A stretch of 64,000 nt of DNA from Cyanobacteriota bacterium (GCA_046045965.1 JBJOKS010000009.1:32001-96000); one strand, 5' to 3'; positions 54,900 to 64,000 are shown, counted from the stretch's first letter. Translations and numbers: made by a program. Notes: generated by a model from the sequence alone, not told the origin.

Positions 54900-56192
54900 T
54901 CAATGCAAGCGATCGCTAAAATACATCTGATATAATTTACATCTGACTCTGACATCATTACCTTCCTGTTTAATTAACCCCATCCCTTCCAATCTTTTCA
55001 GGGGAATAGTTTTTTGATCTGCTCTGACACACTCGTGATTAATAATATGTTTAAAAACATTTCCTAATTCTTGGTTATTTTGTAAATATTCCAAATATCT
55101 AATTAAATGGTGTTGATAAATTCCACCGTCCTTACCCATATCTGCCAGCAATTGTTTAAGACTAATATGATGATGATATAAATGATAAAATGCTAATCTT
55201 ACTAAATAAGGATGTCCTCCCACCATTGACATCAGAGGTATAGCATTTTCCCTATTTAGCAAATGACGAGAAGCTAAATTCTGCACTTCTTCTAAATTAA
55301 ATTCTTCTAATTGCATGGATAATCCCACATTACTAAAAGGAGATTCATTAATACTTATTTTGCCATAATCTTCCGTCGAATGGGCAAGAACTAACCGCAA
55401 TTTCTCCCAAGTTTCTGATTCTTTGGATTTTTCATGCCAAGCCCGTAACATGGGAAAAAAGTTTTGATATATTTGAGGATATTCAAATAGTCTATCTACC
55501 TCATCCAGAACTAAAACTAAATCCCGATCTAACTTTTTTAAGACATTTTGAAACTGTCGAGTACAATGAATTGTACTAGAAAGATCCTGATCCCATTCAT
55601 CTAGGGGAGGTGCGGCTGAAAACTCAACTTGAAAATAAGCATAAAATCCTCTAAAAAAATTATAGATATTACTTAATTGTTGCGTATCAATTTGGCTCAA
55701 ATCTAGTTCCACCGCATAATAATTATTATTTTTGGCTTGAGCAATTATTCTTTTGAGCAAAGAAGTTTTACCCATTTGTTTGGGGGCTTTAATCCGAATT
55801 AATGCCCCTGGTTTTTGAATTTCATTATTCCAAAGACATTGACAATTATTACCTTGAATATAATAGGGTGAATTTAGCGGTTCTGAACCTTCAGGAAAAT
55901 GGGGACTGGAACTATAGCCGTACTTTTCGGCAACTATGGGACTGACTAATTGAGGCTGAAACCGCAAAAATAACCGCACTAAACTTTCTTTATAATCTGC
56001 ATCTTCTACAGGATTAATATCAAACTTTTTGCAGATATTTTTGATATGGTGAATAGCTCCAGTTCGGTCATTAGCACCGATTTTATCAACTATTTCTTGG
56101 TCAGATATTCCTTGGAGAAACAGAGATAAAACTTGTTTTTGTTTAGGAGTTAGTTCTTCTGGATAAATTGTTTTAAAAGTTTCTTGATTCAT
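54900..56192 (-). CDS. LuxR-like HTH fused to AAA_35 ATPase (putative regulator)
   Basis: LTPKQKQVL.L...G.SDQEI......T...HIKNICKKF HTH pattern; FPEGSEPLNSPYY, Walker A APKQMGKTSL, Walker B LVLDEVD, SPFSNVG, GGHPYL. Confidence 0.85.
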   Translation of the reverse strand: MNQETFKTIYPEELTPKQKQVLSLFLQGISDQEIVDKIGANDRTGAIHHIKNICKKFDINPVEDADYKESLVRLFLRFQPQLVSPIVAEKYGYSSSPHFPEGSEPLNSPYYIQGNNCQCLWNNEIQKPGALIRIKAPKQMGKTSLLKRIIAQAKNNNYYAVELDLSQIDTQQLSNIYNFFRGFYAYFQVEFSAAPPLDEWDQDLSSTIHCTRQFQNVLKKLDRDLVLVLDEVDRLFEYPQIYQNFFPMLRAWHEKSKESETWEKLRLVLAHSTEDYGKISINESPFSNVGLSMQLEEFNLEEVQNLASRHLLNRENAIPLMSMVGGHPYLVRLAFYHLYHHHISLKQLLADMGKDGGIYQHHLIRYLEYLQNNQELGNVFKHIINHECVRADQKTIPLKRLEGMGLIKQEGNDVRVRCKLYQMYFSDRLH

Positions 56193-56431
56193 CAACTTAT
56201 CTCAATTGTATTTGCAGCATTAAATCGTAAAAAATTAAATTTTTTAATAAACAGATTACTTGGACGCGATTTAGTTACAAATGCAACGTTTGGAACTGAT
56301 TTATCTTTTGTGTCACATTATCTAATTTTACATCATTTGTGACATAATATGAAATTGCCACCGATAAAATCAACCTGTCATCTGTTATACAACTCAGACA
56401 ATTTTCACATTTTGGACTGACTTTGTGAAAT

Positions 56432-56490
56432 TTGTGAGAAATTACTCAAATTTTTAGCAGTCCGAGGAAAAACAATTAACATACTACTCA
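56432..56490 (+). promoter_or_regulatory. Putative promoter/operator copy 1 (TTGTGA-N7-CTCAA ... ATTAAnATACnACT)
   Basis: Aligns without gaps to 62735-62793. Confidence 0.55.
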
Positions 56491-56529
56491 GAAGTATAGC
56501 TTAAAAGTGATTTTACTTATACCTAAGAT

Positions 56530-57654
56530 ATGAACAGCAAATTTACACGGGTGATAACATCAGCATTTCTAACGCTTCTCATCATGGGTGGGGGAGCGAA
56601 AGTAATTGCTTCTAGACTGGGAGAAACATCGCCAAAGCAAGCTTTTCCGGGACAGGAAACACTATATAAGCTCATCCTCGCGCAAAGTTCTGAAGAAGAA
56701 ATTCGCATTCGAGTCAATGAAAAAGCCAGTCCTGCGGTAGTGACAATTAAGCATGGTGATAGTTTAGGTAGTGGGTTTATTGTGACTCGCAATGGACTGG
56801 TGTTAACAAATGCTCACGTGCTAGAAGATGCTCCATCTACTGTGACAGTGATTTTAGCAGATGGGAGACAAGTTTTAGCAGATGTAATTGGGTTTCAAGG
56901 ACAAGGTTTAGATTTAGCAGCGGTCAAAATTCGTAATCAAAATAATTTACCGACTGTGAAGTTAGCAAAACCAGGATCTACGCGTGTGGGACAATCAGTA
57001 TATGCAATTGGTTTTCCCTTTGGGTTAGAACGTACCTTTACCAGTGGTGTGGTAAGTCGCATAGATAGAAAAAGAAACTGGATACAACACGATGCAGCCA
57101 TTAATCCTGGTAATTCTGGTGGTCCGCTGCTTAATTCCAAAGCTGAAGTAATTGGGGTGAATACATTATTAATTAATCCCAATAATGAAAGTAATACAGG
57201 AATTAGTATAGCGATCGCAGTTGAAGAAGTACAACCTTTTTTAACAGCACTCATCAAGGGTGATACATCTTTAATTGCTCGTCAACCAAAATCCCGCAAT
57301 AATGAAAATGTAGCCATTAAAGAATTACCAATTGATGGCAAAACTGTCACAGCAAAACTAAAAGCAGGTGATGATGTTTTACCCAATAACACTTATTTCC
57401 AAATTTACGCCTTTAAAGGTCAAGCTGGTCAACAAGTGACAATTGAAATGAATAGTAAACAAATAGATTCAGCTTTGTTTTTAGTTTCAAGTAATCAGAA
57501 TAAATTGATTGACAATAATGATGACATTTCCCCTAACAATTTTAATGCTCGGTTGGTAGTTACTCTACCAGAAGATGGGGCTTATTATGTCATTGCTAAT
57601 GCTTTTGAACAAGGAGAATCAGGTGAATACAGCTTAAAGGCAACTTTTAAATAA
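56530..57654 (+). CDS. Exported trypsin-like (S1C) serine protease with C-terminal PPC domain
   Basis: Signal/TM segment; triad LTNAHV, DLAAVK, INPGNSGGPL; YAFKGQAGQQVTI...NDD...LPEDGAY PPC domain; no PDZ. Confidence 0.92.
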   Translation: MNSKFTRVITSAFLTLLIMGGGAKVIASRLGETSPKQAFPGQETLYKLILAQSSEEEIRIRVNEKASPAVVTIKHGDSLGSGFIVTRNGLVLTNAHVLEDAPSTVTVILADGRQVLADVIGFQGQGLDLAAVKIRNQNNLPTVKLAKPGSTRVGQSVYAIGFPFGLERTFTSGVVSRIDRKRNWIQHDAAINPGNSGGPLLNSKAEVIGVNTLLINPNNESNTGISIAIAVEEVQPFLTALIKGDTSLIARQPKSRNNENVAIKELPIDGKTVTAKLKAGDDVLPNNTYFQIYAFKGQAGQQVTIEMNSKQIDSALFLVSSNQNKLIDNNDDISPNNFNARLVVTLPEDGAYYVIANAFEQGESGEYSLKATFK

Positions 57655-57665
57655 TATTCATACCT

Positions 57666-57753
57666 AGATCCCCCCAACCCCCCTTACAAAGGGGGGCTAA
57701 ATTTCTCAAATTTTCTCAAAGTCCCCCTTTTTAAGGGGGATTTAGGGGGATCT
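57666..57753. repeat. AGATCCCCC...GGGGGATCT MITE-like element with internal hairpins
   Basis: Terminal inverted repeats; first 38 bp identical to 62608-62645, last 33 bp match 31888-31920. Confidence 0.85.
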
Positions 57754-57780
57754 GTAAACCCAACAAATCACAATCGAACC

Positions 57781-58320
57781 ATGAATAAAAAATCAGTTCT
57801 CACTTTTTTACTTACCAGCAGTTTTGCTATTGGTTTTTTAACATCTACCATTGCTCAATCTACAGATAAATCACCCGTTAAGTTTATCTGTAATCAAAGT
57901 TTTGATCAAAAGGCAAACAACAACTTACCCACAACATTTGCTTGGCATTCTAAAGGTAAAACTGCCCTCATTAGATGGGAAACAAATTATTTCCGCAATT
58001 ATTCCCCCCAGCGTCGTTGTGAGGAAGTATCTCCCCGTTTTCAACAAGCTTATGACAATGGTACTATCAACTTGATTACTAATGGCAGAATGAATAATCA
58101 ACCAGTGATTTGTACTGTTCGTGAATATGGTGCAGCTTGCGATACTTTGTTAATGACTTTACGACCAGAAGACAATTCTTTACAAGTTCTGAATTTGTTT
58201 AAACAAATTTTTAGCGGTCGTCAAGAAGGTCCTGTTAAACATAGTTCTGGTACTCCTCAAATTTACTATAAAATCAATATTGAGGAGTTTCTTCGTAATG
58301 CTCCTGTAGAGAAGAAATAA
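57781..58320 (+). CDS. COP23 (circadian oscillating protein 23) domain protein, exported
   Basis: Signal peptide; KFIC, PTT.AW, IRW, SPQRRCEEVSPRFQ, ITNGRMNNQPVIC, C..LLMTL. Confidence 0.88.
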   Translation: MNKKSVLTFLLTSSFAIGFLTSTIAQSTDKSPVKFICNQSFDQKANNNLPTTFAWHSKGKTALIRWETNYFRNYSPQRRCEEVSPRFQQAYDNGTINLITNGRMNNQPVICTVREYGAACDTLLMTLRPEDNSLQVLNLFKQIFSGRQEGPVKHSSGTPQIYYKINIEEFLRNAPVEKK

Positions 58321-58332
58321 GAAATCTTTGAT

Positions 58333-58438
58333 CTCGTTCCCAGTCTCCGACTGGGAATGTCATCACAGAGTCTCTGACTCTGATTTTACCAAAGGCAGAG
58401 CCTTTAGAATTCATTCCCATACAGAGTATGGGAACGAG
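58333..58438. mobile_element. CTCGTTCCCA...TGGGAACGAG MITE-like multi-hairpin element
   Basis: 10-bp TIRs; internal hairpins (ttcccagtc/gactgggaa, cagagtc/gactctg, aaaggc/gccttt, ttcccatac/gtatgggaa); remnant at about 14003-14020. Confidence 0.75.
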
Positions 58439-58485
58439 AGAAAATTATCCAGTTCACAAAACCATTAAATCAACTCTTAATTACC

Positions 58486-60933
58486 ATGAAAAAGCCAATT
58501 CTTCTTTCTCTCATTGCCTGTGTTGGTTCTTTATTATTTCTCCCCACAGTCACCGCTCAATTATCAACACCAAAATCAAAAAATAACCCGTCTTTAATTG
58601 CTAACCAAAACATATCAGCTAACGTGCGTCAAATTGCCCAAGCAATCACTGTAAAAGTCTATGTTGGAGATAGTCGCGGTTCTGGTGTTTTAATTGCTAA
58701 AAAAGGTCAAGCTTATACGGTTTTAACTAATGCTCATGTAGTTAGTCGTAGTAAATCCTATCGCATTCAAACACCAGATGGTAAATTTCATCAAGCCGTG
58801 ATTAAAAATCAAGGTGATTCATTAAAAGGAAATGATTTAGCAGTATTGGAGTTTCAATCATCGACTAACTATAGTATTGCTGCTTTAGGTAACTCATCGG
58901 CATTATTAGAAGGTGAAGAAGTTTATACGGCTGGATTTCCTTTTGATCAAGATAATTTGAATTTGACTGCGGGTAAAATATCGGTAGTTGTTTCTAAACC
59001 CTTGGTAGGTGGTTATCAAATTGGTTATACCAATACAACTGTTCAAGGCATGAGTGGTGGTGCATTATTAAATCAGGAAGGTAAGTTAATTGGTGTGATA
59101 GGAATGGGTGCAAATGCGATTTTAAATAATGCTTATCTTTATGAAGATGGAACAAAACCAAATGATACTACTATTGCTAAATTGAGAGATTCTAGTTTTG
59201 CTGTTCCCATTGCCACTATCCTCAAAGTCGCATCTCAATTAGCCACTACTTTACCGCGACAAAAACGTAATTATGTAGGAATAGTGGGAAAGGTAGATAA
59301 TATTGCTGAACAAATTACTGTGAAAATAGATTCAGATTCAGATAATAATGATGGTTCAGGGGTAATTGTTGCTAAACAAGGGCAAACTTATTATGTTTTA
59401 ACTGCGCGTCATGTTGTTGAAAATCAAGATAAATATCAAATTATTACTCCTGATGATCAAAAATATTCACTACAACCTAACAACATCACGCTTTTAGAAA
59501 ATGCAGATTTAGCAGTGGTGCAGTTTACTTCTAATCAAACTTATCAAGTTGCAACTATAGGTAATTATAATTTCTATGCATCACCTTGGATTTTTGTTTC
59601 TGGATTTCCAGCTAAACAAAACTTATCACAGCGACTATTAACTGCTGGAGAAAATCATTTTTTAGGAGAATCAGCCATCAAAGACCAATCTTCTTTTTCG
59701 CAAGGTCAAGAGTTATTGAACACAAATATTTCTTATCGCGGTATGAGTGGCGCACCTATTCTAGATACAAATGGGTGGGTAATTGGTATTAATACAGCCT
59801 CAGAAACTGAGTATCCTACGAATCAAAAAGGAGAGGTGGTTGAGTTTAGTGCAGGGTTTAGTTTAGGAATACCAATCAAAGAATTTTTAAGGCAAGAAAC
59901 AAAGACAAAAATTAAACCAGAGTGGTTAAAAGTGGAAACAGAAAGGCCCGATTTTTTGAACACACAAGCAGAAGAACTGATTAAACATCAATTATTTAAT
60001 TTAGTAGAACCAGCTAAAGATGCCGATGCTTTTGCTTGGCTGAATTATGGTAATCAATTATGGCGTTCAAAGAGGGCAGATGAAGCAATTAGAGCTTTTG
60101 ACAGAGCTATTGAAATTATTAAAGCACAACCAAACTTTGACAAACAATATTATGCCCTAGCTTATTATGGTAAAGGCTTGGCGTTTAGGTTTAATTTTAA
60201 ATATCCAGAAGCAATAAAAGCTTTTGAGCAAGCTATTCAAATTGATCCGCAATTGTGGCAAGCATGGCGCGGTCGTGGTGATATACTTTGGCAGCAAGCA
60301 TTTAATAAGGATGGTGATTCAACTTCAGTTTTAGAAAAATACTCAGAGGCAGCGAAATCATATCAGCAAGCGATTAGAATTATTGAAATTAATTGTAAAG
60401 AAATTAATTGTAAATTATTTAGGTTACATACAAAGCTAGGCTATACGTATGAAAAATTAGGAAATTATCAAGATGCTATTGCTGCTTACACTGAAGCAAT
60501 TAAAATTAATCCTAAAAGTCCAGAGGGTTATTCCGGTAGGGTAAGAGCTTACCAAGAACAAGGAAAATATGCAGAAGCAATAGCTGATTACACCACAATT
60601 ATTAAGATTGATCCTAATAATTTCTCTGCTTATATTAATATTGGCTTAATCAAATACGAACAAGGAGATAAACCAGCGGCACTGAAACAGTGGCAAGAAG
60701 CTTTTAACATTAACAATAAAGCCGCAGAACCTTTAACTTTAATGGGAATGGCGATTATTTTCTATTTACAAGGAGAACAGGAAAAGGGTTTAAATATGGC
60801 AGAAACTGCGGTGCGTTTAGATAAAAACTTTGCTAATGTGGAATTTTTGAAACAGAATCTGTGGGGTGAGCGTTTAGTTGCAGATGCACAAAAATTAATC
60901 TCTCATCCGCGCATTCAAGCAATCATTAAGTAG
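58486..60933 (+). CDS. Exported tandem trypsin-like serine protease with TPR repeats
   Basis: Signal peptide; domain 1 LTNAHV/DLAVL/GMSGG, domain 2 LTARHV/DLAVV/GMSGAP; about 8 TPR-like repeats. Confidence 0.92.
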   Translation: MKKPILLSLIACVGSLLFLPTVTAQLSTPKSKNNPSLIANQNISANVRQIAQAITVKVYVGDSRGSGVLIAKKGQAYTVLTNAHVVSRSKSYRIQTPDGKFHQAVIKNQGDSLKGNDLAVLEFQSSTNYSIAALGNSSALLEGEEVYTAGFPFDQDNLNLTAGKISVVVSKPLVGGYQIGYTNTTVQGMSGGALLNQEGKLIGVIGMGANAILNNAYLYEDGTKPNDTTIAKLRDSSFAVPIATILKVASQLATTLPRQKRNYVGIVGKVDNIAEQITVKIDSDSDNNDGSGVIVAKQGQTYYVLTARHVVENQDKYQIITPDDQKYSLQPNNITLLENADLAVVQFTSNQTYQVATIGNYNFYASPWIFVSGFPAKQNLSQRLLTAGENHFLGESAIKDQSSFSQGQELLNTNISYRGMSGAPILDTNGWVIGINTASETEYPTNQKGEVVEFSAGFSLGIPIKEFLRQETKTKIKPEWLKVETERPDFLNTQAEELIKHQLFNLVEPAKDADAFAWLNYGNQLWRSKRADEAIRAFDRAIEIIKAQPNFDKQYYALAYYGKGLAFRFNFKYPEAIKAFEQAIQIDPQLWQAWRGRGDILWQQAFNKDGDSTSVLEKYSEAAKSYQQAIRIIEINCKEINCKLFRLHTKLGYTYEKLGNYQDAIAAYTEAIKINPKSPEGYSGRVRAYQEQGKYAEAIADYTTIIKIDPNNFSAYINIGLIKYEQGDKPAALKQWQEAFNINNKAAEPLTLMGMAIIFYLQGEQEKGLNMAETAVRLDKNFANVEFLKQNLWGERLVADAQKLISHPRIQAIIK

Positions 60934-60940
60934 GTTTTTT

Positions 60941-61209
60941 GATCCCCCTAAATCCCCCTTAAAAAGGGGACTTTGATTCTAATTACTCCATTAATAAGGG
61001 GACTTTGGTTTTAATTACTCTATTAATAAGGGTAACTTTGATTTTAATTACTCCATTAATAAGGAGACTTTGATTCTAATTACTCCATTAAAAAGGGGGA
61101 CTTTAATTCTAATTCCACCCTTAAAAGGGGATTTTGATTCTAATTACTCCATTAAAAAGGGGGACTTTGATTCTGATTCCCCCCTTATTAAGGGGGGCTA
61201 GGGGGGATC
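60941..61209. repeat. GATCCCCC...GGGGGATC element containing ~7 tandem 31-33-bp units
   Basis: Unit consensus ctttgattctaattactccattaa(t/a)aagggga, starting at 60971, 61003, 61036, 61068, 61101, 61132 and 61165. Confidence 0.9.
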
Positions 61210-61286
61210 TAAGTAAGTGGGTGGTATTCTCGAAAATAGTCCATTTGAAAATTTCATACTTTCTACAAAATACAGGATTTAGAACC

Positions 61287-62576
61287 ATGAACAAAAAAGC
61301 CATTGCCACTGTTTTAATAACAGCAACTATCACAGGTGTAGGATTAATATCTATTATCCCCCTGATGAAAGCAGAAACTCCAGTGAAAATTATCTCTAAT
61401 CAAAGTGCAGAAGGTTATTATAATCGCGGAGATGCTTACTATAAACAAGAGAAATATCCAGAAGCTCTTGCTGATTTTAACCAAGCTATCAGTATTGATA
61501 AAAACTATGCCCAAGCCTATGTAGGACGGGGTAATGTATACAATAAACAAGAGAAATATCCAGAAGCTCTTGCTGAGTTTAATAAAGCTCTGAAAATTAA
61601 TCCCAACTTAGCAGAGGCTTATGTAGGTCGGGGTAATGTTTACACTAATCTAAAAAAATATGTAGAAGCAATAGTTGAACATAATCGAGCTATTCAGATT
61701 GATGAAAATTATGCACGAGCTTACAATGGTCGTGGAGTTACTTACATACGACAAGGAAAATATGCAGAAGCGATGGCTAATTTTAATAAAGCTATTAAAT
61801 TTGATCCTAAATTAAAAGAAGCTTACTTAAATCGGGGAATTGTTTACTTTTTACAAGACAAAGATGCAGAAGCAATTGCTGAATATGATCTAGCTATAAA
61901 GATTGATAAAAACTACGCACTAGCTTACTACTTACGGGGTAATGTTTACTCTCATCAAAATAAATATACACAAGCCATTAGTGAATACACTCAAGCTATT
62001 CAGATTAAGTCTAACTATCCAGAAGCTTACATTCGTCGTGGGTTAGCTTATTCCTCACAAAACAAATATCCAGAAGCAATTTCTGATTACACTCAAGCTA
62101 TTAAGTTTAAGCCCAACTCTACATTCGCTTACGATGGTCGTGGGTCAGCTTATATAGCACAACGAAAATTTTCAGAAGCTCTTGCTGATTTCAATCAAGC
62201 TATTAAAATTGATAAAAACTATCTTGAAGCCTATACTGGTCGAGGATTAGTTTATTTTTTACAAAAAAAATATCCAGAAGCAATTGCTGAATATAACCAA
62301 GCTCTTCAGATTGATAAAAATGATGCACTGGCTTACATTAGTCGGGGAGAGGTTTATAAAGAGCAAAGAAAATATACAGAAGCAATCACTGATTTCAAGC
62401 GAGCTATTGAAATTGATCCTAAATCTGCAATTGCTTATCACAATCGGGGTTTTATTTACGCCATAATAGGAAATCCAAAAGCCATTCAAGATTTACAAAA
62501 AGCTAAAGAATTATATCTACAACAGGGAAATATATTCGAGGCTGAAGAAGTACAGCAATTGTTAAATGGATTGTAA
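61287..62576 (+). CDS. Exported TPR-repeat protein (~11 TPRs)
   Basis: MNKKAIATVLITA signal peptide, then regular 34-aa AY.GRG..Y....KY.EA.A....AI repeats; no catalytic domain. The longer ORF start lies inside the repeat. Confidence 0.92.
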   Translation: MNKKAIATVLITATITGVGLISIIPLMKAETPVKIISNQSAEGYYNRGDAYYKQEKYPEALADFNQAISIDKNYAQAYVGRGNVYNKQEKYPEALAEFNKALKINPNLAEAYVGRGNVYTNLKKYVEAIVEHNRAIQIDENYARAYNGRGVTYIRQGKYAEAMANFNKAIKFDPKLKEAYLNRGIVYFLQDKDAEAIAEYDLAIKIDKNYALAYYLRGNVYSHQNKYTQAISEYTQAIQIKSNYPEAYIRRGLAYSSQNKYPEAISDYTQAIKFKPNSTFAYDGRGSAYIAQRKFSEALADFNQAIKIDKNYLEAYTGRGLVYFLQKKYPEAIAEYNQALQIDKNDALAYISRGEVYKEQRKYTEAITDFKRAIEIDPKSAIAYHNRGFIYAIIGNPKAIQDLQKAKELYLQQGNIFEAEEVQQLLNGL

Positions 62577-62607
62577 GAGGATGTTTTAAAAGTATCAGAA
62601 TTAATCA

Positions 62608-62645
62608 AGATCCCCCCAACCCCCCTTACAAAGGGGGGCTAAATT
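62608..62645. repeat. Half of AGATCCCCC element
   Basis: 38/38 identical to 57666-57703. Confidence 0.85.
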
Positions 62646-62734
62646 CTTCTTTAGCATTGCTTTACCCCTACCCATGCTGATTAATCAGATAAGTGTGAGA
62701 AAAAAATCACCTTTTGAGGAACTTGATAATAAAC

Positions 62735-62793
62735 TTGTGAAAATTTTCTCAACTTTGCAAACATCACCATAAAAGCTATTAAGATACAACTAA
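62735..62793 (+). promoter_or_regulatory. Putative promoter/operator copy 2 (TGTGA-N6-TCTCA, CRP-box-like)
   Basis: ttgtgaaaattttctcaa ... aaaagctattaagatacaactaa; same spacing as copy 1. Confidence 0.55.
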
Positions 62794-62819
62794 AGCTTAG
62801 TTCAGGAATTAAAAACATC

Positions 62820-63365
62820 ATGAATAAAAAACTGCTTACAACTGCTTTAATTACCGCATCTTTTGTAGTTATGGGAGCGATATTTCCCATTTCTGAAAGC
62901 AAAGCCGAATCTGATGTTAAGTTTATCTGCGGAAAAAGTTATGACCGACAGACAGCTAATAAAAATAAACGTTTACCGACAACCTTTGCTTGGACTAGCA
63001 GAGGTAAAACCGCCATTGTTCGCTGGGAAAAAAACTTTGGTAAATATTCTCCTGAAGAACGTTGTAAGTCAGTAGCTCCCCGGTTTCAAGAAGCTTATGA
63101 TAATGGGACTTTACAGATGATTACTAATGGTAAAGTGAATGGTCAACCTGTAATTTGTGCAGTTCGGGAATATGGAGATTCTTGTCAAACTGTGTTAATG
63201 ACATTGCGTCAAAAAGACAATCCTATCCAAATGCTGAACGACTTAAAAGACACTCTTAATGGTCGTGGTGTAGGTCCAGTTAAAAATAGTTCTGGGACTC
63301 CTCAAATTTACTATCAAGTCAATATGGATGAGTTTCTGCGTAACGCTCCTATAGAAAAGGAGTAA
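62820..63365 (+). CDS. COP23 domain protein, exported (paralog 2)
   Basis: Clearly similar to 57781-58320 (VKFIC, LPTTFAW, GKTA..RWE, RFQ.AYDNGT, QPVIC, SSGTPQIYY, EFLRNAP). Confidence 0.9.
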   Translation: MNKKLLTTALITASFVVMGAIFPISESKAESDVKFICGKSYDRQTANKNKRLPTTFAWTSRGKTAIVRWEKNFGKYSPEERCKSVAPRFQEAYDNGTLQMITNGKVNGQPVICAVREYGDSCQTVLMTLRQKDNPIQMLNDLKDTLNGRGVGPVKNSSGTPQIYYQVNMDEFLRNAPIEKE

Positions 63366-63396
63366 CAAAAAAATATTTATTCCCTCTTTTTTGCAA

Positions 63397-63903
63397 ATGA
63401 AAAAATTTTGTTTATCGCTGTTGGTAATTAACACATTTTTATTCTCTGTCAATTCACAATTATCAACAGCTATTTCTCCTCCTATAAACACCATTCAACA
63501 ACTAGAAAATAACTCAGATTCACAGCTAGATTTTAACACAAATGAGATGCAAATTATTGGAGATGAAATTCTGCTTAGTGAAAACTTGCAAAATCAACTA
63601 GAAACGGAAATATTAGAAGCTCAAAAAGAACTAGATAGATTATCTGCAAGTTTATCAATTCAATTTAATGACGATGTAGGGATTGTTTATTTTCACAAAG
63701 GACGGAACAATTGGGAGATTAAATTTACCTTTGGAGGATTGGTTTTAAATCAACCGCCAAAAATGATATTATCTATCAAAGAAATCTTTGCGTTAAAGGA
63801 GAGTTTTAATCAAATAAAATGGATAGAAGTTAAAGGTAAAAAATACGCCACAACTGGTTTAATGAGACAGATGGGACCGATATTACATAAAGAGGAATCA
63901 TGA
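63397..63903 (+). CDS. Exported hypothetical protein
   Basis: MKKFCLSLLVINTFLF signal-like start; about 30 bp after COP23; no recognisable domain. Confidence 0.6.
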   Translation: MKKFCLSLLVINTFLFSVNSQLSTAISPPINTIQQLENNSDSQLDFNTNEMQIIGDEILLSENLQNQLETEILEAQKELDRLSASLSIQFNDDVGIVYFHKGRNNWEIKFTFGGLVLNQPPKMILSIKEIFALKESFNQIKWIEVKGKKYATTGLMRQMGPILHKEES

Positions 63904-63916
63904 CAATCAAAATTCT

Positions 63917-64000
63917 TTAATCTTCATCACATTGTTCAACTAGCTGTGATCCATGTATAACAGCAAGAATATCAATTTGCTCAGATTTAATATAATAGAT
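63917..64000 (-). CDS. 3' end of a RelE/ParE-family toxin (partial, runs off window)
   Basis: Hand translation: ...IYYIKSEQIDILAVIHGSQLVEQCDED*, matching the typical IY...I.ILAV.HG ParE C-terminus. Confidence 0.7.
   Translation of the reverse strand: MYYIKSEQIDILAVIHGSQLVEQCDED

Follow-up and report, generated by a model that had tools for sequence, protein, structure and literature searches.

Organization of the locus

The stretch of DNA analysed here (GCA_046045965.1 JBJOKS010000009.1:32001-96000, from a Cyanobacteriota bacterium; 64,000 nt in full, hereafter the window, with positions counted from its first letter) ends in a divergent gene cluster. A gene for a regulator with a helix-turn-helix (HTH) and an AAA_35 ATPase domain faces away from a cassette encoding trypsin-like (S1) proteases, two copies of COP23 and tetratricopeptide repeat (TPR) proteins. 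A second AAA_35 ATPase gene, whose product has a predicted transmembrane (TM) helix and WD40 repeats, lies just beyond the window. Together these genes form a real and conserved variant of STAND signalling that is apparently undescribed. The features are as follows.

54900..56195, minus strand: HTH-AAA_35 regulator, 431 aa (Pfam, predicted structure, profile comparison)
56435..56448, plus strand: predicted operator box 1, TGAGAAATTACTCA, a TGAR-N6-YTCA palindrome (motif search)
56477..56482, plus strand: predicted -10 element TAACAT, 28 nt 3' of box 1 (promoter pattern)
56530..57654, plus strand: predicted exported trypsin-like (S1) protease with C-terminal PPC, 374 aa, triad intact, PDZ not found (Pfam)
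57781..58320, plus strand: COP23 of the short, protease-linked type, 179 aa, four Cys, modelled as two beta-beta-beta-alpha repeats
58486..60933, plus strand: predicted exported double trypsin-like protease with TPRs, 815 aa, both triads intact
61287..62576, plus strand: predicted exported TPR-only protein, 429 aa, with an N-terminus like that of the COP23 genes
62738..62751, plus strand: predicted operator box 2, TGAAAATTTTCTCA, 5' of the second COP23 (motif search)
62780..62785, plus strand: predicted -10 element TAAGAT, 28 nt 3' of box 2
62820..63365, plus strand: second COP23, 181 aa, 59% identity to the first
63397..63903, plus strand: predicted exported 168-aa protein, no Pfam family
63917..64000, minus strand: 3' end of a ParE-family gene (whole gene 97 aa, C9:95917-96210), which runs past the window end
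C9:96630-99938 (L009:4631-7939), plus strand: AAA_35-TM-WD40 predicted receptor, 1102 aa, wholly outside the window and starting 630 bp past its end

The seven open reading frames (ORFs) of the original prediction were all recovered at their predicted positions and with their predicted domains (Pfam). Its extent (54900..63903) held for the ORFs but not for the right limit, as a ParE-family gene that runs past the window end and an AAA_35-TM-WD40 gene wholly outside it come next. The accessory island spans about 13 kb and holds the regulator, the cassette and the AAA_35-TM-WD40 gene. The distance from pmbA to the next conserved gene is 13.2 kb in the window genome versus 132 bp in G026; this flanking gene encodes 874 aa and is presumably chloride-channel-like. 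At the island site, the congener G101 has a 1.6-kb remnant with pieces of the second COP23, the 168-aa ORF and the WD40 tail that are 84-96% identical. The GC content of the island is 34.1%, versus 38.1% genome-wide.

The HTH-AAA_35 regulator

The regulator matched AAA_35 in Pfam (E = 5.8e-111), and its match to GerE was weak (E = 0.0014) and below the cut-off. A profile of 35 regulators matched the DNA-binding domains of VraR, NarL and GerE (E = 2e-6 to 1e-5), indicating a GerE-type four-helix HTH and upholding the LuxR-like HTH assigned originally. The Walker motifs are intact, as had been claimed: Walker A reads APKQMGKTS, in which Ala replaces the first Gly, a substitution shared by most of the family, and G-K is invariant in the 35 rows; Walker B reads LVLVLDEVD. 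In the predicted structure (pLDDT 90.4), the domain order is HTH, STAND NTPase, helical domain and winged-helix domain; a P-loop NTPase followed by helical and winged-helix domains is a STAND architecture similar to those of NB-ARC, NACHT and MNS proteins. The best Foldseek match was archaeal SSO1545 (E = 2.4e-10, TM-scores 0.54/0.64), and PAB2304 was also found. Further matches were Avs3, NRC4, Apaf-1, CED-4 and MalT (8bob) at E values of 4e-7 to 3e-6, and ORC/Cdc6 structures match the model equally well as STAND proteins. Sensor repeats are not present in the modelled chain, whose last domain is the winged helix; it is the partner gene that encodes them. AAA_35 ATPases were matched in 173 of 201 genomes of the order, and no function for them turned up in the literature searched.

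Linkage of the regulator to the cassette

Phylogenetic trees of the regulators and of COP23 were built with FastTree. With its closest relatives, the regulator forms a clade that spans 20 genomes and five families, the window genome included. A trypsin gene is present at all 20 clade loci, COP23 and trypsin together at 19 (the remaining contig ends at 2.7 kb), and an AAA_35-WD40 gene at 18 (the other two contigs are too short). A downstream AAA_35 partner accompanies 23 of 25 more distant HTH-AAA_35 genes; one of the 25 is near a lone trypsin gene, and COP23 is not close to any of them. In 11 clade loci the receptor gene directly follows the regulator and the cassette is divergent. The receptor gene is located at the far end of the cassette in the window genome, G127, G326 and G654, and the order is rearranged in G307, G475 and G720. 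G307 and G475 were considered as exceptions to the linkage and rejected as such, since their wider regions hold displaced cassettes with the operator box described below. The regulator type is patchy: at E = 1e-95 or better it was found in 14 of 250 genomes of its own family and in none of three congeners.

The promoter box and the -10 element

A palindrome had been seen twice in the window beforehand, and a Gibbs search of ten intergenic regions with the window left out recovered it as TGAR-N6-YTCA. It occurs in 16 of 16 clade intergenic regions (the training set) versus 59 of 2716 upstream regions of the window genome. In 13 of 18 promoters, 28 nt separate the proximal box from the downstream TAnnnT; of the other five, four have a degenerate proximal box and one has a 29-nt spacing. 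Two boxes 41 bp apart are common. The box also lies 5' of the trypsin-PPC genes, displaced ones included (7/7 distinct genes in clade loci).

A looser promoter pattern (TGAR-N7-TCA, 28 nt, TAnnnT) has a density of 11 per 100 kb in the clade, where 18 of 20 loci carry it. Its density is 0.54 per 100 kb among other COP23 loci (5 of 59 with the pattern) and 0.49 per 100 kb among other HTH-AAA_35 loci (2 of 24). The 28-nt spacing gave 34 matches in clade loci, and other spacings except 32 nt gave 0-6. Four held-out loci carry the pattern before the first cassette gene, namely G654 and G720, retrieved once the motif had been defined, and the loci with displaced cassettes in G307 and G475. The box is almost never present at unlinked COP23 loci in regulator-bearing genomes, and the pattern was found in none of eight regions that have the same cassette but lack such a regulator. 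Because cassette copies without such a regulator carry no promoter match, the box follows the regulator and not the cassette. A consensus sigma-70 scan was at chance (40 vs 35.9), and no consensus -35 element was found at the box promoters. The genome-wide search for the promoter pattern in five genomes gave 67 matches in total versus 43 for the reversed control, and because this excess is small no wider regulon is claimed.

The original prediction had the HTH-ATPase controlling transcription of the cassette. Because of the clade-wide linkage and the regulator-specific box, which support this predicted role, the HTH-AAA_35 protein is very likely the transcription factor of the cassette, and from the promoter geometry we predict with considerable confidence that it acts as an activator.

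At the locus of a sister regulator in G719, a near-perfect palindromic box lies between the regulator gene and a divergent gene (L229:13020-13643) for a 207-aa predicted exported protein that has no Pfam family and is unrelated to the cassette.

The AAA_35-TM-WD40 predicted receptor

The partner protein consists of AAA_35, one transmembrane helix predicted from hydropathy, and WD40 repeats. In a quick tree, 13 cassette-linked receptors and the G307 receptor split from 25 other receptors (branch SH-aLRT 100). The WD40 partner would provide the sensor that is absent from the regulator, and the two are probably coupled, as their gene pairing suggests.

COP23 and its linkage to proteases

The two COP23 proteins matched PF14218 with E values of 8.9e-38 (first) and 8.2e-37 (second), corresponding to 129.6 and 126.5 bits versus a cut-off of 27. 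The four Cys expected in both are borne out by the alignment, in which C37, C80, C111 and C120 are invariant in 94 rows. The COP23 model (pLDDT 84.1) comprises two beta-beta-beta-alpha repeats. Foldseek gave no match to a solved structure at E = 0.001, the best VIA-align result was a partial PH/PX-like similarity (Z 4.7 over 48 residues, rmsd 3.8), and no clear match was found among the predicted structures of the ESM Atlas. COP23 may thus have a new fold, which null searches of this kind do not prove.

Within the phylum, 111 of 301 genomes gave a COP23 match. For the neighbourhood analysis, a non-random sample of 60 regions was hand-picked from the 150 listed of 379 matches; strong short forms were favoured, long forms were added deliberately, and one region yielded no COP23 ORF. 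In this hand-picked sample, a trypsin gene lies within two genes downstream of 39 of 45 short COP23 genes versus 1 of 14 long ones, which agrees with the proposed co-occurrence of COP23 and S1 proteases. Of 94 short COP23 genes, 70 immediately precede the protease gene, and 5 of 6 other COP23 loci of the window genome are within two genes of a trypsin gene. The proposed association of COP23 with HTH-AAA_35 is evident from the regulator side (19 of 20 clade loci) but not from the COP23 side, where only 1 of the 45 short-COP23 loci has such a gene; a Ser/Thr kinase gene lies within 6 kb in 16 of the 45. A search for longer COP23 proteins gave three matches, and no COP23-trypsin fusion was among them, which is weak evidence. 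One clade of short COP23 genes lacks trypsin neighbours (L022, L033, L039, L063 and L074), and some of its members are beside kinase or WD40 genes.

The predicted complex of COP23 and the double protease scored 0.38, and the best of three controls 0.00, with a contact agreement of at least 90% and a partner pLDDT of at least 66 in the runs. In calibration, 116 of 157 solved pairs and 2 of 215 mismatched pairs scored at or above the mark. Because scores of 0.60 or under comprise few solved pairs (18) and both mismatches, binding of COP23 to the double protease is weakly supported by the model. The distances of COP23 and protease correlate (rho 0.32, permutation maximum 0.15); this correlation was rejected as evidence of binding because neighbours are co-inherited.

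The suggestion that COP23 is an inhibitor is hypothetical, its binding being weakly supported and the fold searches having given no clear likeness to an inhibitor fold. A proteolytic cascade, as envisaged originally, and toxicity of the proteases are likewise hypothetical. P0095 and P0096 are fusions of COP23 to CHAT and to DUF1822; in them a hydrophobic stretch precedes COP23, which occupies the slot held by CHASE2 in CHAT-CHASE2 receptors. These fusions favour a role of COP23 as an outer binding or sensing module rather than a plain inhibitor.

Proteases, TPR proteins and sequence divergence

By Pfam, the first protease consists of Trypsin_2 and PPC, the double protease of two Trypsin_2 stretches plus TPR, and the third gene product of TPR only. 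The catalytic His/Asp/Ser residues are kept in all three protease domains (H96/D128/S196, H84/D117/S190 and H309/D341/S421), in line with the earlier claim. The proteases score best against HtrA/Do models, at values below the cut-offs (176.9 bits vs 416.2 for TIGR02037). PDZ was not found on them by Pfam, and PPC or TPR stands in its place.

Export was predicted by a hydropathy rule, not SignalP, and 297 of 3382 ORFs of the window genome pass this rule. Signal-peptide-like N-termini had been reported for all six cassette proteins; five pass the full rule, and the sixth has the hydrophobic core and a +2 charge. The TPR-only gene exists as described, but its assigned start (TTG 61134) was revised: the first 40 nt from ATG 61287 and a later 32-nt stretch resemble the starts of COP23 genes, and because of this resemblance ATG 61287 is most likely the start. 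Comparison of 61282-61406 with 57776-57900 and 62815-62939 in the window showed that the gene opens with a COP23-like signal peptide and first strand, and this suggests a chimera produced by local recombination. The 168-aa protein was found in three other clusters; a relative follows the double protease in G326, and G654 has a similar 168-aa ORF.

Mean identities over 51 close pairs were 89% for the HTH, 85% for the regulator ATPase, 80% for the receptor ATPase, 76% for the first protease, 73% for COP23, 60% for WD40, 59% for the second protease and 55% for TPR. The idea that the TPRs supply variable specificity is therefore consistent with the data in that the TPR regions are the most variable part.

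The cassette beside other signalling genes

The COP23/protease cassette is a module that also has other signalling genes as neighbours: sigma, DUF1822 and CHAT genes in G299, DUF1822 and CHAT-CHASE2 genes in G133, and a CHAT-nSTAND1-WD40 gene in G041. No caspase-like CHAT, ECF sigma or DUF1822 gene was found between the conserved genes flanking the island, and CHAT and DUF1822 probes gave no match in the clade loci examined with them.

Several further arrangements were observed. A trypsin-PPC/COP23/double-protease cassette converges on a CHAT-WD40 gene of about 1550 aa in L021, L031 and L046 (G044, G041 and G059), with nSTAND1 shown for L031. Convergent Ser/Thr kinase genes follow COP23/trypsin cassettes in L014, L020, L023, L030, L041, L043, L047, L065, L066 and L068, and kinase-PPC fusions occur in L071 and L139. 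In G000, a COP23/trypsin cassette (C1:95282-107891) is divergent from what we take, partly by assumption, to be a kinase-like gene and three Hsp70-like genes. A COP23/two-trypsin cassette of the same genome (C4:191036-195532) is divergent from a 200-aa gene with the N-terminal HTH type of other AAA_35 proteins and without the ATPase.

Proposed mechanism and alternatives

On balance, we consider it probable that the island is a split NLR-like (STAND) circuit that would induce a periplasmic surveillance module with COP23 as an adaptor, a reading drawn from gene content and sequence patterns. The WD40 propellers would face the periplasm and bind a cue, as suggested by the one hydrophobic helix between ATPase and repeats. 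The receptor ATPase would then oligomerise and recruit the sensor-less HTH-AAA_35 protein, as expected from STAND biology and the conserved gene pair. Next, the activator would bind one or two of the boxes, for which the sequence pattern is evident, and turn on the cassette. In the periplasm, COP23 would dock onto the double protease and act as its dedicated adaptor or regulator, and the fast-changing second protease domain and TPRs may choose the targets. The likely purpose would be inducible surveillance of the envelope for variable proteins that are foreign or damaged.

A bolder extension, which we hold tentatively and rate as somewhat short of probable, is a kinase-free "NLR two-component system". 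Here, a TM STAND receptor whose WD40 propellers are periplasmic would nucleate a soluble HTH-STAND activator in the manner of sensor/helper NLRs and drive an inducible periplasmic immune module. COP23, as a new fold, would link trypsin-like proteases to variable targets and could be connected to STAND, sigma/caspase or kinase inputs alike.

Several observations weigh against the split-circuit reading. The first sightings of the motif were in the window and its clade. A control spacing of 32 nt also gave 13 matches in clade loci. Because 12 of the 20 clade loci are close kin within one family, the clade counts overstate independence. The sister regulator of G719 has the box and a receptor but no COP23 cassette, so regulators of this type can do without the cassette. 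COP23 also exists without proteases, and 17 long stand-alone forms constitute their own clade in the tree. In 4 of 23 relatives, the catalytic Asp of the second protease domain is replaced by His, and two active sites are thus not required. The divergence of the repeats is inflated because repeat regions align poorly. Receptor topology and cassette export both derive from hydropathy, by which some non-clade AAA_35-WD40 proteins show no helix above the threshold. In the window genome, the cassette and the ParE gene lie between the regulator and receptor genes.

Of the alternatives, an envelope-stress loop is unlikely but survives best. Cpx is an envelope-stress system of CpxA/CpxR/CpxP with DegP, in which cpxP is divergent from cpxRA. 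By analogy, COP23 would be a CpxP-like periplasmic brake on the receptor that is removed by the proteases, whose targets would be misfolded and not foreign proteins. The commonest gene arrangement (11 loci), with COP23 divergent from regulator and receptor, mirrors this layout; the resemblance of the proteases to HtrA/Do, though below cut-offs, and the position of COP23 in the CHASE2 slot of CHAT/DUF1822 fusions, which suggests a sensory or signalling role, point in the same direction. The island is also Cpx-like in combining a predicted membrane sensor, a cytoplasmic activator, a divergent small periplasmic protein and a periplasmic S1 protease output. However, it contains no histidine kinase or receiver domain, the proteases are those on which PDZ was not found, and COP23 is modelled as an alpha/beta protein with four Cys and no solved-fold match. 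Moreover, the patchy distribution (14/250), the decay in a congener and the fast-changing TPR, second-protease and WD40 regions fit conflict better than housekeeping, and COP23 is tied to proteases under several regulators and not to this receptor in particular.

It is distinctly improbable that the regulator represses the cassette, or that another factor reads the box, with the STAND pair riding on the island as a passenger immune module. The tie between box and regulator is one of position and co-occurrence, and HTH-AAA_35/AAA_35-WD40 pairs are common without the cassette (23/25). The box also resembles the TGA...TCA sites of CRP/FNR-type regulators, but these have a 6-nt spacer and the box has one of 8 nt. 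Against this alternative, the box is near chance genome-wide, nearly missing from unlinked COP23 loci in regulator-bearing genomes, absent from sigma-linked cassette copies and kept through several rearrangements. Its fixed distance 5' of a -10 element without a consensus -35 is the usual signature of activation.

Slightly less probable still is COP23 as the cognate inhibitor (immunity protein) against exported proteases used as weapons on competitors, grazers or phage: the small disulfide-type exported gene directly 5' of the protease, the distance correlation and the weak predicted complex would fit it, but immunity genes usually lie after the toxin gene, no inhibitor fold is among the COP23 structure matches, co-inheritance alone accounts for the correlation, and the fusions place COP23 as the outer domain of signalling proteins.

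Comparison with known systems

MalT is a STAND transcription activator with a LuxR-type HTH. The split circuit resembles MalT/LAL activators in combining a STAND NTPase with a LuxR-type HTH and in the predicted oligomer on repeated boxes before the promoter. It differs in that the HTH is N-terminal and the regulator has no sensor domain, sensing being apparently performed by a second, membrane-anchored STAND-WD40 protein. In layout, the STAND pair also resembles paired sensor/helper NLRs. The MNS clade of STAND NTPases was reportedly defined by Leipe and co-workers in 2004, and we take AAA_35 to be equivalent to the Npun2340/2341 family. The island shares with this MNS-clade family the occurrence of cyanobacterial AAA_35 ATPases in gene pairs, and SSO1545 and PAB2304 are the best fold matches. 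The family is named in the accessible part of PMC8195603, but an operator, regulon or protease cassette for it was not found in the parts of the literature searched.

The accessible part of the same study describes EACC2-caspase neighbourhoods with ECF sigma and DUF1822 in multicellular cyanobacteria (Kaur et al., 2021, PMC8195603). As far as this part goes, they resemble the island in predicted transmembrane signalling to transcription, and the same cassette is found beside such genes in G299 and G133. However, the transducer of the island is a STAND pair with its own box, and there is no sigma factor, DUF1822 or caspase. Trypsin-co-occurring domains (Trypco1/Trypco2) are described in the accessible passages of another study as parts of MoxR-vWA ternary systems (Kaur et al., 2020, PMC7159879). 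There too, going by those passages, a small dedicated gene lies beside trypsin-like peptidases in conflict-type systems, but COP23 is predicted to be exported and the Trypco systems are MoxR-vWA ternary ones. COP23 is not mentioned in those passages or in the two supplements of PMC7159879, nor in 12 of 13 supplement files of PMC8195603 that were searched. In the accessible parts of two preprints, COP23 abundance is circadian or nitrogen-linked for other homologues, with no function settled.

Among catalogued anti-phage systems (PADLOC-DB 2.0), only shared-domain matches from different systems were obtained, with no full-length match to a single system. By the features tested, the island falls outside HtrA, EACC2 and every PADLOC system. 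Neither a COP23-protease cassette nor an AAA_35 regulator was described among the matches listed in the accessible literature searched, a scope that excluded subscription papers.

The locus supplies a predicted operator, promoter geometry and regulon for bacterial NLR-like pairs, making their role testable. COP23, an abundant protein, gains a candidate partner and a fold without a solved match. If the split-circuit reading is true, bacteria signal across the membrane to transcription by means of paired NLR-like ATPases. Under the bolder two-component extension, a first operator and regulon would be assigned to the HTH-AAA_35/AAA_35-WD40 pairs that are widespread in cyanobacteria, and a first biochemical role to COP23.

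Other features of the island and its surroundings

Metatranscriptome data (two runs, contig shares 0.16 and 0.10) gave short low-depth pieces on the right half of the island, too thin to show transcription or its level, and were not used as support. The ParE-family gene is probably a passenger, and G654 has a similar ORF at the same place. The spacers at 57661-57760, 60933-61215 and 62608-62645 contain CCCC/GGGG-rich short dispersed repeats and a 32-nt tandem array, which could drive shuffling of the cassette. A minus-strand trio located 11 kb past the window (L009:14502-17190) resembles a small defence or DNA-modification cluster; its genes are presumably MazG-like, DUF1643-like and a nucleotide-kinase-associated-like ORF.

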